Below are positions 1,335 to 6,540 of a stretch of DNA of 64,000 nucleotides, one piece after another; position 1 is the stretch's first letter, and each line of letters begins with the position of its first letter. The stretch is from an uncultured Clostridia bacterium. Its GTDB lineage: Bacteria > Bacillota > Clostridia > Christensenellales > CAG-314. The translations under genes and the position numbers were made by a program. Under the pieces are notes generated by a model. The model made no database searches. It was not told the DNA's origin and saw nothing but the letters and a program-made list of their open reading frames with translations. The stretch spans positions 22,969 to 86,968 of the forward strand of contig CALVWF010000006.1 of assembly GCA_944364615.1 (NCBI GenBank), read 5' to 3'.

Positions 1335-2270
1335 TCAAATGATTCTTACAATTGCGTGCAAGTTATCTATTATAAATTTTTGCGCTTTGATATTGTAAAG
1401 AGCAATGCTATACTCACCGTTGCTACCGCTTCTGCGCTCAACGCTAATACCCATTTCACTACCAATATCGCTTGGCAATTTATAGTTCTTTGCATCAAGC
1501 GAAACCACTTTCAGAATTCCAACGCTCAATAACCACTCTGTAATATCCGTCGCTTTTAATTTTGCTGCGCTCGTGTTTGTCTTTAACGCATTTATTCTGC
1601 CAGTAATCTGACTTATCATCAAAGGTGTTTCGGAGAATTCAAATTTTTCAAGCTCTGCTTGAGTGATTTCAAATGGCTCGGATGGCTTGCGTTTAACTGT
1701 TGTATTCGAATATGCTACAGAAGTTTTAGAGAATTCGATAATTTCCGAAAGATGCTCTCTTATGAAGCGTTGAGCGTTCACATTGCATCGAACATAGTAT
1801 TTTGCTCGGCCGTTGTCCTTTATTACCTCATCCGTGGTAATACCGAGATTAACTCCTTTTTGTGTAGGGCGTTTGGTCATCTTATTATCGCTCGTTGCAA
1901 TTCTCGTCAAATATCCTTCATGCAAAAGCCAATTGTTTATCTCGGTTGCGGTAAATTTACGAGTTGATCTTAACGCATCGTTTACTCGCTTTGCAAAAGT
2001 GCTTATGCCCACTCTCAACGCAGAGCATTCGATTCTTGTAAGAACATCGGGCGTGACGATCCACTCGTTAGTCTTATACATTTCTGTCAAGGCAGACGGA
2101 TTTTCAATAATTTTAGATAAGATATCCGCTACATATAAAAAGCATTTGGATAGTCTTGGGTTAAGCGCAACCTCGCCGTCGGGGATAAGTGTGCCGTCAG
2201 TAGGATCAATACCGATGGCTAATTTATCAATAAATGATTTTGCGTAAGCAATCTTTTCTATTTCTGTCAT
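1335..2270 (-). CDS. Hypothetical protein with two tandem antirepressor-C/winged-helix-like repeats
   Basis: 311-aa ORF with GAGG RBS; internal repeat ATEINNWLLHEGYL..PTQKGVNLGI..NAQRFI vs ATDITEWLLSVGIL..PSDIGSEMGI..KAQKFI. Confidence 0.6.
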   Translation of the reverse strand: MTEIEKIAYAKSFIDKLAIGIDPTDGTLIPDGEVALNPRLSKCFLYVADILSKIIENPSALTEMYKTNEWIVTPDVLTRIECSALRVGISTFAKRVNDALRSTRKFTATEINNWLLHEGYLTRIATSDNKMTKRPTQKGVNLGITTDEVIKDNGRAKYYVRCNVNAQRFIREHLSEIIEFSKTSVAYSNTTVKRKPSEPFEITQAELEKFEFSETPLMISQITGRINALKTNTSAAKLKATDITEWLLSVGILKVVSLDAKNYKLPSDIGSEMGISVERRSGSNGEYSIALYNIKAQKFIIDNLHAIVRII

Positions 2271-2282
2271 AACAAACCTCTA

Positions 2283-2492
2283 TTAATTCTCAATATCAGT
2301 GATTTCAACAATATCGCTGATATCGCATTTTAAAGCAGTACAAATACGAACAAGGGTTTCAGTTGAAACATTTTCATCTTTGTTGAGCTTAGTTAATGTT
2401 CCACGACTGATTCCGGCTTGTTCAAGCAAATCCTTCTTTTTCATTTTTCGATCTATTAAAAGCTTCCATAGTTTGTTGTAACAAATAGCCAT
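2283..2492 (-). CDS. Cro/C1-type HTH transcriptional regulator
   Basis: YNKLWKLLIDRKMKKKDL..AGIS..TL.KL..ENVS...L.RIC.AL.CDI.DI, typical of small Firmicutes Xre proteins; GAGG RBS. Confidence 0.9.
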   Translation of the reverse strand: MAICYNKLWKLLIDRKMKKKDLLEQAGISRGTLTKLNKDENVSTETLVRICTALKCDISDIVEITDIEN

Positions 2493-2701: not shown

Positions 2702-2968
2702 TCACTTAATTAAGGTTTCTATCGCTATCTGCATTCCTAATTTGAAGGCATACTCGAAGATGGCTGCTTCGGCGAGGCTCATGTACTCGCTCCAGCAATC
2801 GTGGAACTTTTCGAATGTTTCTTTCTGCTCGTCCGTGAAGCTCTTTTCTAAGTCTTCGTGATGCCTTGCCATGTAGCCGAGAAGTTCATTCATCTCCTTC
2901 GAGTTGGTTCGGCTGTCCTCTTGCGGAATGATGTTTCCGTGCCATAGTTCTTTTATTGGGTTGTCCAT
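2702..2968 (-). CDS. Small acidic hypothetical protein (DUF6809-like), common in Firmicutes mobile regions
   Basis: GGAGG RBS before ATG 2968; IKELWHGNI.P.E...F.YAFKLG pattern. Confidence 0.65.
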   Translation of the reverse strand: MDNPIKELWHGNIIPQEDSRTNSKEMNELLGYMARHHEDLEKSFTDEQKETFEKFHDCWSEYMSLAEAAIFEYAFKLGMQIAIETLIK

Positions 2969-2992
2969 GTGTTGCACCTCCTGTTAGCACAA

Positions 2993-3094: not shown

Positions 3095-3495
3095 TAAGCC
3101 CATCTGATCCGTATCGGTCTTTACCCAGTGTTCACTTTTTGTCCCTATGAGTAAAAACACTTCGTTTCGTTGCTATTTGTTTGAGAGTTTTGTTATTCAA
3201 TAAGTAGTTAAAACTGAGGGCAAATAAATACCCCCGTCAGACAAGTTTGAGAGTTTTGTTATTCAATAAGTAGTTAAAACTCAAGCGGAAAGTAATCGAT
3301 ACCGCTTTTTGTTTGAGAGTTTTGTTATTCAATAAGTAGTTAAAACCTCATCATGTCGAAGTAACCAATGCTTGCGGTTTGAGAGTTTTGTTATTCAATA
3401 AGTAGTTAAAACTCTGCATACGAGCGTCGCCGTTGTCCACGTGTTTGAGAGTTTTGTTATTCAATAAGTAGTTAAAACATTTTTGCCTAAATCAG

Positions 3496-3527
3496 TGTTA
3501 TAATTTGGAAAAACACCGAAAAAGGAG
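3496..3527 (+). promoter_or_regulatory. Extended -10 promoter (TGTTATAAT) and RBS (AAAGGAG) inside the giant spacer
   Basis: TGnTATAAT at 3496-3504; AAAGGAG at 3521-3527, 6 nt before ATG 3534. Confidence 0.7.
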
Positions 3528-3533
3528 CGAATT

Positions 3534-3902
3534 ATGAAAAAATATTTCACAAAACGCAACATTCTTATCGTGGCGACAATCTTATGCTTTTTGATTGCAA
3601 TTTTGTTTGCTTTTGTGCCGTCTTGGTATTGGCAAGTTCTCACATATGATACACGCACACACGAATTTAAAATGTTGGGTTTTGGGTACCCGATAGCGTT
3701 AGCAAAATATGGTTGTATTGTTGTTTACAGGTTGGTTATTGTGTGCATATTTGCAATGTTGTTTCTCGTGTGTTCTATTATGCTTTCAATTGACATTTTC
3801 AAGCAATACCGACAAGAACACCCACGCAAGCCGACATACAAGCAACGCATTGCCGAACTTGAAAAGCAAATAGCCGAATTAAAGCAAAACACTAAGGACT
3901 GA
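3534..3902 (+). CDS. 122-aa two-TM membrane protein with C-terminal coiled coil (moron-like), inside the CRISPR array
   Basis: Strong RBS; two hydrophobic segments; QRIAELEKQIAELKQ heptads; followed by a terminator. Confidence 0.8.
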   Translation: MKKYFTKRNILIVATILCFLIAILFAFVPSWYWQVLTYDTRTHEFKMLGFGYPIALAKYGCIVVYRLVIVCIFAMLFLVCSIMLSIDIFKQYRQEHPRKPTYKQRIAELEKQIAELKQNTKD

Positions 3903-3919
3903 AAAACAGTCCTTTTTTT
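3894..3919 (+). terminator. Intrinsic terminator inside the giant spacer
   Basis: AAGGACTG-AAAAA-CAGTCCTT followed by a T run, between two convergent ORFs. Confidence 0.8.
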
Positions 3920-4349
3920 ATTGCTCTATGATGTTTTCCACTACTGCCCCTAACTGCGTGTTGAATTGCTGTTCGTCAAGGCTTTCGCCCACTACGTTTG
4001 TAAACTCGTCCACAATGTCGGGATACACGGTGTCGCTGTTGTCCACAAAGTCAAAGGTTATCACGCTGAACGTGTTGCCGTCCGCTGATATAGTCAGCCG
4101 TGGTATGCAGTCAATCACCGCCCCGATGTCGCAAAGACACTCCCACAAGGTTGTTTGCGTGTTCCACTCAAACTGTGGGGAAATTGTTTCGGTCAGCACT
4201 GCTACTACGTCCATGTCGGTGGTAACGGTGTAAAGTGGCGCACCGCCCGAGGCGGTCAAAGGCGTTACCGCTAAAAGCCGTTGCAACACCGCTAAAAGGC
4301 TCAAACGCTCGGCGGTATCTTCGGGCTGTGTCACCTTAAAACCGTCAAT
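3918..4349 (-). pseudogene. 5'-truncated gene fragment, possibly a phage structural (tail/baseplate-like) protein C-terminus
   Basis: Frame is open to the repeat boundary at 4349 (IDGFKVTQPED...) and stops only inside the repeat; no RBS; acidic, Thr/Val-rich composition. Phage assignment is inference. Confidence 0.55.
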
Positions 4350-4449
4350 GTTTGAGAGTTTTGTTATTCAATAAGTAGTTAAAACTAAAAATCTGCGACT
4401 ACTTTGATATAAGTGGTTTGAGAATTTTGTTATTGCGGAGCAACGTAAA

Positions 4450-4481
4450 AAATGCCTGCAACTGTACAGTTACAGGCATTT
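4450..4481. terminator. Hairpin terminator between the CRISPR trailer and the TIR-FtsK gene
   Basis: AAATGCCTG...CAGGCATTT inverted repeat. Confidence 0.7.
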
Positions 4482-4482
4482 G

Positions 4483-6336
4483 TCAGTTGGTGTCGGACAA
4501 AATTTTCTTGTATTTTTCAAGATCTTCGGGAGGAATGGTCAATTTGCCGCTTTCCTTGTCGGCATAGCCTCTTTGACACATCATTTCGAATATACGCACA
4601 GCCTTGGAAAATCCTATAGACAAAGTGCGCTGCAATGTGCTTACGGTAGCCTTGTTGCAAGACGCCATCTTCACCATTGCGTCGGCAAAAACTTCTTCCG
4701 GAAGTAAGTCGACTGTTTTTAACGGCAGTTGTTCCTCTTCTAAAGATTCCTGCCGCGACGCGCTCCGTCGCAAAATCTCCTCGGGATTGTTTAACCGTTT
4801 AATCGTCTTTTCGATATACTTGTCGTCAGTCGAAAGCGCCTGCAACCGTACGGCAGGGGTAAAAGGCTGAACATACAGTGTATCGCAACCGTCAATCAGT
4901 TGCGTTGCTTCCGACGAATCGGTCAGCACGAAAGAATTTTTAGGGTCGCTGCATTTAAACGCTATCCTGCAGATGAAATTTGCTTTTACAAGACCTGAAA
5001 TTTTAGAAACGTCCTCACCGCCCACAGCGACAAGCGTGTAAATGCCCGCGGCGCGACTTTTTGTCAGAATCTTGGAAAGCAGTTGATCGAGCGTTTTGTC
5101 GGGCACATAGCCGTTAATGACAAATACAATGTACGGCAATGCCTTCCGCGCCGTCTTGTTGTAATCGGCAAGACATCTGCAAATATTTCCCGAAGCGCTT
5201 GCCTCAAGCATCAGCGAATACCTCGACTCCATTTCTTTGGTAAGGTCGAGTATACTTGTCGCCAGATCGGACACTTTGTTTGCGTTTGCTATGTAGACGT
5301 TCGGAGCCTTGTCAAACACTTTCAAATCCCCCGTACCGTCAAACAGACGTATAGACACTTCGGAAGGTGAATAGTTGTCAATTACATATGTCACGGCGCT
5401 CTTGACAAATTCGGAAATGTCCCGTGCGCTGTCACCCCCGACAAGAATGTGAGGACAACTGTTCAACACCGCCTTTTCCACAACGTTGTCTGCCGTTACT
5501 CCCAGCGGAATACTCAGTTCCGCCGATTTGCCTTCGAATTTTTGCACATATTGCGTATACTCGGGAGCCAACGCATATTCTAACGGTGCCTGTACCACGA
5601 AGACGTTTGAACGTACCAGATAATGCACGGTAGCATTGCCTTGGCGCAATTGCGCAGCCAATTTGTTTGTAAGTAAGTTTACATTCACCACGTCCCGTTC
5701 CACTTTTCCGCAGGCATTCTTTACAGATGAAAAGTTTCTGTGATTCATCTGCCGGTCAAACAGAATATTAAATCCGTCTTCCGGTTCCACCGTGTATTCG
5801 GCAACGGACGGCGAACGCATATTACACTTTACGCCCTGAATTTTTATACCGTTTTCGAAAAAGAACGTAGTCAGAAACTTCATTGCCTCAACGGGATCGC
5901 CCATATTGATCTCTTGTGGCAACGACTGTCCCGCCACTCCTGCAAGTTCCGCAATTACCTTTAAAACCTTCTTCATTTGCGGAGAGTTCTCGTCAACCGA
6001 AGGGAGCGACACTATTTGCTGGTCGCACAAAAAAAACTGAAAGGTCGAATTTAACATTATGTCTTCCAGTTGCAGAGGAACAATCGTCTTGCGGTAATTG
6101 ATTGCCCTTTCCACTTCCTTGGACACCCACGGAGATTGCTGGGCGTCTTTTGTAAGCAACAGCACCACACAGGCGCAGTTTTTCAAAGCGTCGGGAATTA
6201 CCTCCGCATAAGACGAGCCCGCGGGAATATCGTAAGGAGCCATCCATGTATCGATTTTCCTGCGACTCAACAGTGAACGCGTTGCGTCCGCCGCCTTCTG
6301 GTTTTTAGTGCTGTAACTGATAAAAACGTAACCCAT
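4483..6336 (-). CDS. TIR domain fused to a degenerate FtsK/SpoIIIE motor domain and an FtsK gamma domain
   Basis: N-term VFISYS...SPWVSKEV (TIR); PHILVGG, RAAGI, KANFICRIAF (FtsK); STLQRTLSIGFSKAVRIFEMM (gamma wHTH). Confidence 0.85.
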   Translation of the reverse strand: MGYVFISYSTKNQKAADATRSLLSRRKIDTWMAPYDIPAGSSYAEVIPDALKNCACVVLLLTKDAQQSPWVSKEVERAINYRKTIVPLQLEDIMLNSTFQFFLCDQQIVSLPSVDENSPQMKKVLKVIAELAGVAGQSLPQEINMGDPVEAMKFLTTFFFENGIKIQGVKCNMRSPSVAEYTVEPEDGFNILFDRQMNHRNFSSVKNACGKVERDVVNVNLLTNKLAAQLRQGNATVHYLVRSNVFVVQAPLEYALAPEYTQYVQKFEGKSAELSIPLGVTADNVVEKAVLNSCPHILVGGDSARDISEFVKSAVTYVIDNYSPSEVSIRLFDGTGDLKVFDKAPNVYIANANKVSDLATSILDLTKEMESRYSLMLEASASGNICRCLADYNKTARKALPYIVFVINGYVPDKTLDQLLSKILTKSRAAGIYTLVAVGGEDVSKISGLVKANFICRIAFKCSDPKNSFVLTDSSEATQLIDGCDTLYVQPFTPAVRLQALSTDDKYIEKTIKRLNNPEEILRRSASRQESLEEEQLPLKTVDLLPEEVFADAMVKMASCNKATVSTLQRTLSIGFSKAVRIFEMMCQRGYADKESGKLTIPPEDLEKYKKILSDTN

Positions 6337-6503
6337 GAATATCCCCTCCCATCAAACTTTAAGACAAGACCTGTGTTTTTACAACTATATTTAAATACGA
6401 CGCACGCAGCATAAATCTGCCCGCCACATTTATTTATATTACAACAAATGCATAAGTTTGTCAATTGCGCCCGTTGCGCGCACGGCAAATTTTTGCTACG
6501 ACA

Positions 6504-6540
6504 AAAGCCCTTTCTCTGCAAAAGAAAGGGCTTTTTTTGT
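6504..6540. terminator. Terminator downstream of trxB
   Basis: AAAAGCCCTTT...AAAGGGCTTTT inverted repeat. Confidence 0.75.

Follow-up and report, generated by a model that had tools for sequence, protein, structure and literature searches.

A TIR domain fused to an ATPase-dead FtsK module in an uncultured Clostridia bacterium: a candidate one-gene conflict system

The coupling of a TIR domain that hydrolyses NAD+ (a NADase) to a sensor that oligomerises is a recurring immune design, from bacteria to plants and animals. In SARM1, AbTir, SPARTA, TIR-STING and Cat1 the NADase sites form only once the TIR domains pack together. FtsK, for its part, assembles into rings on double-stranded DNA, and its gamma domain reads the DNA. 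The gene described here joins the two. It lies in a stretch of 64,000 nucleotides, called the window throughout, from contig CALVWF010000006.1 of an uncultured Clostridia bacterium (assembly GCA_944364615.1, positions 22,969 to 86,968), and encodes an N-terminal TIR domain followed by alpha-like, beta and gamma domains of the FtsK type, of which the beta domain has dead ATPase motifs (Table 1). An ATP-dead motor that keeps the ring-forming fold and the gamma domain would look like a DNA- or ligand-dependent assembly switch, and the TIR-FtsK protein is most likely an infection alarm, not a DNA pump.

The known TIR NADases that are activated by oligomerisation (SARM1, AbTir, the TIR-APAZ protein of SPARTA, TIR-STING and Cat1) share the TIR fold and the catalytic motif with the window protein. 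Their TIR domains are joined to ARM/SAM, Argonaute, STING and Cat1 domains, whereas here the partner is an FtsK-derived module. The closest working analogue is Sir2-HerA, and with it DUF4297-HerA, in which a ring-forming protein of the FtsK/HerA superfamily is likewise paired with an effector that destroys NAD+. In Sir2-HerA, binding of HerA is reported to activate the NADase allosterically (PMC11514289). Sir2-HerA is encoded by two genes, its effector is a Sir2 and its HerA has intact Walker motifs, whereas the window protein is a single fusion with a TIR domain, a motor of the FtsK branch, a gamma domain and dead motifs. The structural model of the full-length protein matches Sir2-HerA (8woc) weakly, and the PADLOC models for HerA and Sir2 did not match the protein. 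FtsK-like domains without working Walker motifs occur in EssC, where they are described as binding or regulatory modules (PMC11090510). EssC and EccC are among the structural matches (4nh0, 4lya, 9jv8), but they consist of tandem domains, are anchored in the membrane and serve secretion, whereas here one motor domain is combined with a gamma and a TIR domain. Each part of the protein has a precedent: Sir2-HerA couples a ring to a NADase, and EssC contains Walker-dead FtsK domains.

The FtsK/SpoIIIE translocases resemble the window protein in the alpha and beta folds and in the winged helix of gamma. They possess a four-transmembrane (4TM) anchor, a long linker, Walker A, Walker B and a TQRPS segment, none of which is present in the window protein, which adds the N-terminal TIR domain instead. 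An intermediate position is taken by TIR-FtsK proteins with an intact motor (P0004-P0011, P0101, P0102/G482 and others). In these the order TIR-alpha-beta-gamma is the same, with 50-60% identity in the TIR domain and 25-31% in the motor, but they keep GxxGxGK[ST], DE, TQRPS, FtsK_alpha and a full FtsK_SpoIIIE domain (E 5.1e-46 in G482), which the clade of the window protein does not. No ThsA-type effector as in Thoeris was found in the locus; ThsA models were not run genome-wide. The protein fails the chemistry of FtsK and the definitions of the Thoeris and Sir2-HerA operons and is a member of none of them. Searches of an open-access library turned up no description of a TIR-FtsK or TIR-SpoIIIE fusion.

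The TIR domain and the FtsK-derived module

Modeled alone, the TIR domain reached a predicted local distance difference test (pLDDT) value of 93.6, and its best Foldseek matches were the TIR domains of AbTir, SPARTA TIR-APAZ, MAL and SARM1. Its query-normalised TM-score (TMq) against AbTir 7uxu and SPARTA 8spo was 0.74-0.79; for AbTir the values were TMq 0.74 and, normalised to the target, TMt 0.77. A profile of the TIR family aligned W-x-x-K-E with W-V-H-K-E of SARM1, the Glu of which we take to be the catalytic E642, and F-I-S-Y with F-I-S-Y of SARM1; it also matched Cat1 and TIR-STING, both NAD-cleaving TIRs. A preliminary description of this DNA had claimed that the catalytic Glu is retained within SPWVSKE. 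This proved correct: the residue is E74, it aligns with the SARM1 Glu and, like S7, Y8 and W70, it is invariant in all 30 aligned members of the TIR family. The TIR domain thus looks catalytically competent and is a predicted NADase.

The full-length AlphaFold2 model, computed with 38 aligned relatives, has a mean pLDDT of 87.8. Its best matches in the PDB are the FtsK motors 2iut, 6t8o, 6t8b and 2ius of P. aeruginosa and E. coli, with E values of 5e-22 to 3e-21 and target TM-scores of 0.68-0.75. The match spans about 400 columns, so that neither the alpha nor the beta domain of FtsK is missing. TcpA, EccC/EssC and, weakly, Sir2-HerA follow in the list. At the sequence level, phmmer related the protein to 2ius with an E value of 1.9e-19, and Pfam FtsK_SpoIIIE matched partially (residues 265-381, E 5.4e-08). 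The alpha-like domain contains an insert at about residues 189-219, a beta-hairpin of low confidence (pLDDT 49-62 at residues 200-220), which in the alignment occurs only in the window protein (P0001) and its sister clade (P0003).

Within this well-preserved scaffold the catalytic motifs are gone. Alignment to intact FtsKs bore out the earlier reading that Walker A has become GDSARDIS, the DE of Walker B NG and ATQRP AVGGE. In FtsK, the sensor Gln and the Arg finger belong to the last of these segments. The scaffold motifs that had been listed as retained (PHIL, RAAGI, KANF.CRIAF and a helix of gamma) were all located, as PHILV at residue 295, RAAGIY at 428, KANFICRIAF at 451 and LQRTLSIGFSKAVRI at 568. 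The gamma domain scored 38.3 bits with FtsK_gamma (cut-off 30.6) and aligned with the gamma domain of E. coli FtsK in 2ius; in the model it forms three helices and a wing, with a pLDDT of 94-96. Pfam revealed no FtsK_4TM domain, and the highest Kyte-Doolittle mean over 19 residues, 1.37, falls within the TIR core, in agreement with the claim that a transmembrane anchor is absent. An N-terminal extension is impossible because the open reading frame (ORF) comprises only 622 codons and opens 5 codons before the ATG start. A complex prediction with two copies of residues 145-515, computed without control runs, yielded a score of 0.00 (mark 0.42), which speaks neither for nor against oligomerisation.

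Relatives, distribution and maintenance of the dead motor

Among 5.8 billion protein clusters, the dead alpha-beta-gamma module was found in only two clusters at 90% identity, that of the window protein with 72 members and the sister cluster P0003 with 15 members, and in both it is fused to TIR. An exhaustive search of the representatives gave the same result. The next matches were ordinary FtsKs with 25-30% identity. Between the two clades the overall identity is 45%; it is highest in TIR (72%), followed by alpha (44%) and by beta and gamma (39% each). They have the replacements in Walker A, Walker B and TQRPS in common: D306, N408 and G409 are invariant in both, and the stretch that was once Walker B, LPYIVFVINGYVPDKT, is identical in all 28 aligned sequences, as is KSRAAGIY. 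The protein is of full length in 13 of the 15 listed members of the window cluster (617 amino acids) and in 15 of 15 of the sister cluster (635-637 amino acids).

Strain differences point in the same direction. In contigs of four public runs, 16 of the 18 listed single-base differences in the coding sequence are synonymous, compared with a random expectation of 23%, and for codons 221-527 the proportion is 9 of 10; the counts come from 40 of the 65 differences, a subset. A quick maximum-likelihood tree was built from 40 motor domains. In it a long stem of 1.12 changes per column (SH-aLRT support 100) leads to the dead pair, which is sister, with a support of 97, to the TIR-fused P0016 and P0103. 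Because both clades share the replacements, the differences are mostly synonymous and the dead pair emerges from a single stem, the motor was remodeled once, before the two clades separated, and has since been kept under a purifying selection that acts on the whole ORF. By these sequence comparisons the dead motor is maintained rather than decaying. The tree requires 5 changes for the TIR fusion, and with 17 of its 37 inner branches unsupported it does not decide between a single and a repeated fusion.

In the sister cluster (P0237-P0250) the variable sites are distributed unevenly: 14 of 35 in the linker before gamma, 20 of 70 in gamma and 12 of 135 in TIR. Expressed as percentages, 40% of the sites vary in the linker and 29% in gamma, compared with 9-10% in TIR, alpha and beta. 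The variability of linker and gamma could be due to diversifying selection on the DNA-reading head or to relaxed constraint, and it would suit a surface that reads a target.

Loss of the motifs is not confined to these two clades. The 29 TIR-fused FtsK-like sequences comprised 17 with intact Walker A and B motifs (GK[ST] and an acidic pair), 3 borderline cases, in which Lys is replaced by Arg or Ser by Gly, and 9 degenerate ones. Two of the degenerate lineages fall on different branches of the tree; L013 and P0130, which were outside the tree, are degenerate as well. The ATPase motifs were thus lost more than once among TIR-fused FtsKs, and ATP turnover has more than once been dispensable for the role, whatever it is, of the module linked to TIR.

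The TIR module itself (residues 1-135) is widespread, with 334 representatives of 50-60% identity at E<=1e-30. Among 89 TIR matches, Pfam identified as partners FtsK_SpoIIIE (14), PF13306 (26), protein kinase (7), Sel1 (5) and PF00308 (5), and single matches also carried PF00091 and PF14572/PF13793. We take PF00308 to be DnaA, PF00091 tubulin/FtsZ and PF14572/PF13793 phosphoribosyl pyrophosphate (PRPP) synthetase; going by the accessions, the partners in P0012-P0090 presumably also include BspA-type leucine-rich repeats, Ser/Thr kinases, Sel1, MORN and TPR. The design is modular, an effector joined to a variable partner. Most members of this large, unnamed fusion family come from metagenome-assembled genomes of the gut or rumen whose record titles name Clostridia, Ruminococcus or Oscillospiraceae.

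The TIR-FtsK gene is accessory, rare and sporadic. With the window protein as the query, a search of 81 other species of the family, one genome each and the same-genus genome included, did not find it, and neither did searches of two class-wide samples with 398 other genomes each. What matched in the family was confined to about residues 265-598 and lay in frames roughly 900-1100 codons long, except for a TIR-only match in G033. The preliminary description had named conserved housekeeping homologues among the findings that would speak against its proposal. This was not borne out, as the gene was not found in the 81 genomes of the family and the same-genus genome G066 has unrelated genes at the syntenic site. 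A scan of viral contigs with the window protein did not uncover a relative, and none of 256 matched records in a phage collection and none of 552 in a plasmid collection covered 80% or more of the protein; the matches concerned the FtsK part only. Half or more of the sampled words of the stretch occurred in 16 entries, which leaves 12 entries from 11 studies when 4 that may represent the source are subtracted. These 12 are mostly labelled chicken gut, and the gene is known so far only from chicken-gut metagenome assemblies. The genome (1.69 Mb in 14 contigs, 93.45% complete) encodes a normal FtsK on contig C3, in a frame of 975 codons, to which the dead motor is 28% identical.

Among more distant relatives, the ATPase-intact TIR-FtsK of G482 (627 amino acids) begins 60 nucleotides downstream of a housekeeping 4TM ftsK (1278 amino acids) on the same strand (L018:5599-11379). 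The two are not a recent tandem duplication because their motors are only 39% identical; the TIR-fused motor is no closer to the adjacent FtsK than to FtsKs of genomes of the same order. A helicase of 1257 amino acids (DUF4011/AAA_11/AAA_12/REase_MTES_1575) is encoded about 4.7 kb downstream of this TIR-FtsK. When the full G482 protein was used to search the same order, 393 of 401 genomes matched, swamped by housekeeping FtsK, and among the 150 matches listed the only one that started at residue 1 was its own. G483 encodes a TIR-X-gamma protein of 443 amino acids (L013:10001-11332), in which Pfam found no FtsK motor between TIR and gamma and which may represent an even more reduced form. A metagenome scan with an alignment of the two dead clades and with TIR-only patterns yielded 69 loci, of which only L083, a contig of 3.2 kb, matches beyond TIR, over residues 1-586 and thus in the FtsK part as well. 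Two further candidates, L012 (residues 1-181) and L016 (residues 1-183), were dropped since the sizes of their ORFs did not fit a TIR-FtsK.

Proposed function and rival explanations

We propose that the gene is a one-gene conflict module, directed against phages or other mobile DNA, that unites a sensor and a TIR effector. TIR would act as an oligomerisation-activated NADase, and the pseudo-ATPase together with gamma would form the sensor and scaffold. We assign this proposal a probability of roughly 55%; NADase activity, oligomerisation, a trigger by DNA and a defence phenotype are what we infer from the features described above. In the proposed sequence of events, the N-terminal TIR domain would cleave NAD+ only when TIR domains are brought together. 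The FtsK-derived part would no longer bind or hydrolyse nucleotides but would keep the ring-forming fold and the DNA-reading gamma domain. It would bind the trigger, the simplest candidate for which is double-stranded DNA of the invader, and an FtsK-like oligomer would assemble without translocation, so that the TIR domains cluster. The clustered TIRs would break down NAD+, and the infected cell would be arrested. If true, this would be a sensor of new origin, a DNA translocase turned pseudo-enzyme. The family carries the same TIR head on motors with intact and on motors with dead ATPase motifs and is therefore a natural experiment on whether translocation or mere assembly on the target is required to fire TIR; it also offers a compact one-gene system suited to the study of DNA- or decoy-dependent TIR activation.

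Several observations weigh against this proposal. Because chromosomal DNA is always present, a plain DNA trigger would need an extra specificity; gamma might recognise certain sequences or DNA ends, or the trigger might be a protein for which the module serves as a decoy. In PADLOC and NCBIfam no model spans the whole protein, and the partial matches remained below the curated cut-offs (66.5 bits of 1566 for the FtsK equivalog, 49.4 of 778 for EssC and 35.6 of 220 for ThcB4). The G482 relative follows immediately on the housekeeping ftsK in a neighbourhood of core genes such as cysS, though with the helicase of 1257 amino acids further downstream, and the G483 relative lies between relA/spoT and hisS. 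With the island in the window this makes three relatives with readable flanks, the context of which is mixed and too thin for statistics; the rarity of the dead form, with two clusters, bars a statistical test for defence islands. Finally, the CRISPR array next to the gene is a decayed relic without cas genes, and in a DNA contig of run X5 and an RNA-library contig of run X15 the sequence diverges to the left of about position 4441-4483, where 27-28 other letters follow. The left junction therefore varies between strains, as these contigs cease to fit there, and the proximity of CRISPR is weak support for defence because the array is decayed and the junction differs in two runs. The CRISPR array to which the preliminary description had pointed has thus turned out to be a cas-less relic; the island contains defence-type genes, and the surroundings of the relatives are mixed. 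Overall, the features noted in the preliminary description are confirmed, and its interpretation is plausible and supported in part.

An alternative that shares the alarm function but not the trigger regards the dead module as an integrated decoy that mimics host FtsK. Binding of a phage or plasmid protein to the mimic would switch on TIR, as in plant nucleotide-binding leucine-rich repeat (NLR) receptors. A decoy needs a fold and a surface rather than chemistry, and these are exactly what the dead module has kept. The same TIR module is fused to PF00091 and PF14572/PF13793 (single cases) and PF00308 (five cases), presumably core machinery as well; the active relative in G482 is encoded directly behind host ftsK; and many phages carry FtsK/SpoIIIE-like genes, in line with the 256 phage records that match the motor part. 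In a wider form of this explanation, the TIR family as a whole, with its copies of FtsK and, by the names we attach to the Pfam accessions, of DnaA-like, FtsZ/tubulin-like and PRPP-synthetase-like proteins, would be the counterpart of the plant NLR receptors with integrated domains (NLR-ID), and DNA that recruits FtsK would be a trigger too. However, this analysis identified no phage factor that targets FtsK, a dead motor with about 28% identity to the cell's own FtsK would be a poor mimic, and in 17 of the 29 TIR-fused relatives the motor still looks active, which a decoy would not require. We consider the decoy unlikely, and its wider form unlikely to the same degree.

Rather improbable, too, is a role outside immunity, in which the protein regulates chromosome segregation or cell division by docking on DNA or on FtsK with its dead motor and gamma domain, while TIR acts as an interaction domain or as a toxin in another conflict such as competition between plasmids or strains. 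The retained gamma domain would fit such a role, as would the G482 relative adjoining housekeeping ftsK and the G483 relative among core genes, but against it the gene is sporadic and accessory and occupies a variable slot, and the catalytic residues of TIR are kept in what is the most conserved part of the protein.

A Thoeris-like division of labour, with a TIR of the ThsB type that synthesises a small nucleotide signal for a separately encoded effector while the FtsK-like part senses the infection, has in its favour partial matches to Pfam ThsB_TIR (28.2 bits), PADLOC ThsB (4e-06 and weaker) and NCBIfam ThcB4 (4.4e-09). The transcription unit contains no partner gene and is flanked by a trxB-like gene and the CRISPR relic, the only SIR2_2 gene of the genome matches no PADLOC model and is located elsewhere, on contig C1, and the TIR domain belongs to the only TIR_2 gene of the genome; this explanation is hardly probable. 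That the gene is a functionless relic on its way to being lost, as the disappearance of all three ATPase motifs, the long stem of the dead clade and the decayed CRISPR-Cas neighbour might suggest, is very improbable in view of an ORF that is intact in two 45%-identical clades with the same replacements, strain differences that are synonymous in 16 of 18 cases, a former Walker B stretch that is invariant across the clades, and metatranscriptome contigs that cover the gene, which is compatible with transcription but no proof of it.

Gene layout and the surrounding island

The gene starts with ATG and has the layout of a single-gene transcription unit, with a promoter-like site, a ribosome-binding site and a terminator-like hairpin (Table 1). 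The promoter-like site is a consensus match only, of a scan that yielded no excess of sites over shuffled sequence, and the terminator call is likewise a consensus match only. Contigs assembled from two metatranscriptome libraries span the gene, which is consistent with its transcription; parts of the window not covered by such contigs, for example the array, are not thereby indicated to be silent.

Table 1. Features of the TIR-FtsK gene and its neighbours in window coordinates
Feature	Position	Strand	Basis and remarks
TIR / FtsK-alpha-like / pseudo-ATPase beta / gamma gene	4483..6336	(-)	617 amino acids; stop codon 4483-4485; ORF list and translation
TIR domain, residues 1-135	5932..6336	(-)	Pfam TIR_2, residues 4-92, E 2.1e-18
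Putative catalytic Glu E74 codon	6115-6117	(-)	within SPWVSKE, motif start residue 68
FtsK alpha-like domain, residues 151-264	5545..5886	(-)	Foldseek alignments of 394-419 columns, spanning whole FtsK alpha-beta chains
RecA-like beta domain with dead ATPase motifs, residues 265-512	4801..5544	(-)	alignments to intact FtsK
Former Walker A GGDSARDIS, residue 300	5413-5439	(-)	aligned to GxxGxGKS; Lys position is D306
Former Walker B VFVINGY, residue 404	5107-5127	(-)	DE replaced by N408-G409
Former TQRPS AVGGED, residue 437	5011-5028	(-)	aligned to ATQRPS; VGG on TQR
FtsK gamma winged-helix domain, residues 548-617	4486..4695	(-)	Pfam FtsK_gamma, residues 548-597, E 1.1e-09
Promoter-like site TTGACA-17-TAATAT, 10/12 matches	6436..6464	(-)	consensus scan and sequence reading
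Shine-Dalgarno GGGAGGGG	6343-6350	(-)	seven bases upstream of the ATG; sequence reading
Intrinsic-terminator-like hairpin, 14-pair stem then T run	4450..4481	(-)	directly 3' of the stop codon; scan
Second hairpin	6503-6535		between the TIR-FtsK gene and the upstream trxB-like gene
RecQ-like DEAD/Helicase_C + UvrD/GajB-like double helicase, 1605 amino acids	2-1312, on to G000:C6:19463	(-)	Pfam, PADLOC, NCBIfam
311-amino-acid ORF of no family	1335-2270	(-)	
HTH_26 protein	2283-2492	(-)	
DUF6809 protein	2702-2977	(-)	
Orphan type II-style CRISPR array	3179..4451	(+)	five exact 36-nucleotide repeats, 871-nucleotide interruption, one exact and one degenerate terminal repeat
122-amino-acid hydrophobic ORF in the array insert	3534-3902	(+)	followed by a terminator-like T run
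138-amino-acid ORF in the array insert	3918-4334	(-)	no clear family

The slot occupied by the gene is variable, and its content is of the defence type. G066, a genome of the same genus, has a Big_3 surface protein and a C39-like peptidase between the conserved nrdD/trxB-like pair and an LPG_synthase_C/GNAT gene. The same slot in the source genome (G000) measures about 11 kb and contains, in this order, a Cas9 stump, the helicase, the 311-amino-acid ORF, the HTH_26 and DUF6809 genes, the CRISPR array and the TIR gene. The helicase matched the PADLOC models DpdF (2.4e-96), PsyrT (5e-81) and GajB (3e-45), and together with the 311-amino-acid ORF, HTH_26 and DUF6809 it may form a separate defence module. 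Over positions 3449-6538 this arrangement recurs in contigs of run X9.

The array adjoins the gene as closely as had been claimed: its degenerate last repeat ends at 4451, and between there and the stop codon at 4483 there is room only for the terminator hairpin (4450-4481). All 6 exact repeats of the genome are within this array. The interruption between the fifth and the sixth repeat (3479-4349) contains two small ORFs, and the same insert is present in a contig of run X9. Neither ORF matched Pfam or PADLOC, and NCBIfam and PHROGs gave one weak match each (E 0.004). Of Cas9 there is an N-terminal stump of 34 codons, FIGLDIGTESVG..., followed by TAG (G000:C6:18605-18781, to the left of the window). 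It is RuvC-I-like, with DIGTESVG, and the Cas9 model covers it over positions 2-41 of 1070 only, with 25.1 bits versus a cut-off of 100. Cas1 was not found in the 93.45%-complete genome, and no search was made for cas2. At the Rfam gathering thresholds the 13.9-kb island yielded no match, hence no tracrRNA-like or other known RNA. The other cas genes of the operon seem to have given way to the block on the opposite strand that comprises the helicase, the 311-amino-acid ORF, the HTH gene and DUF6809, while the array itself survives. About 6 kb to the left of the Cas9 stump there is a gene of the phage-integrase family (L010:8539-9714, G000:C6:11538-12713).

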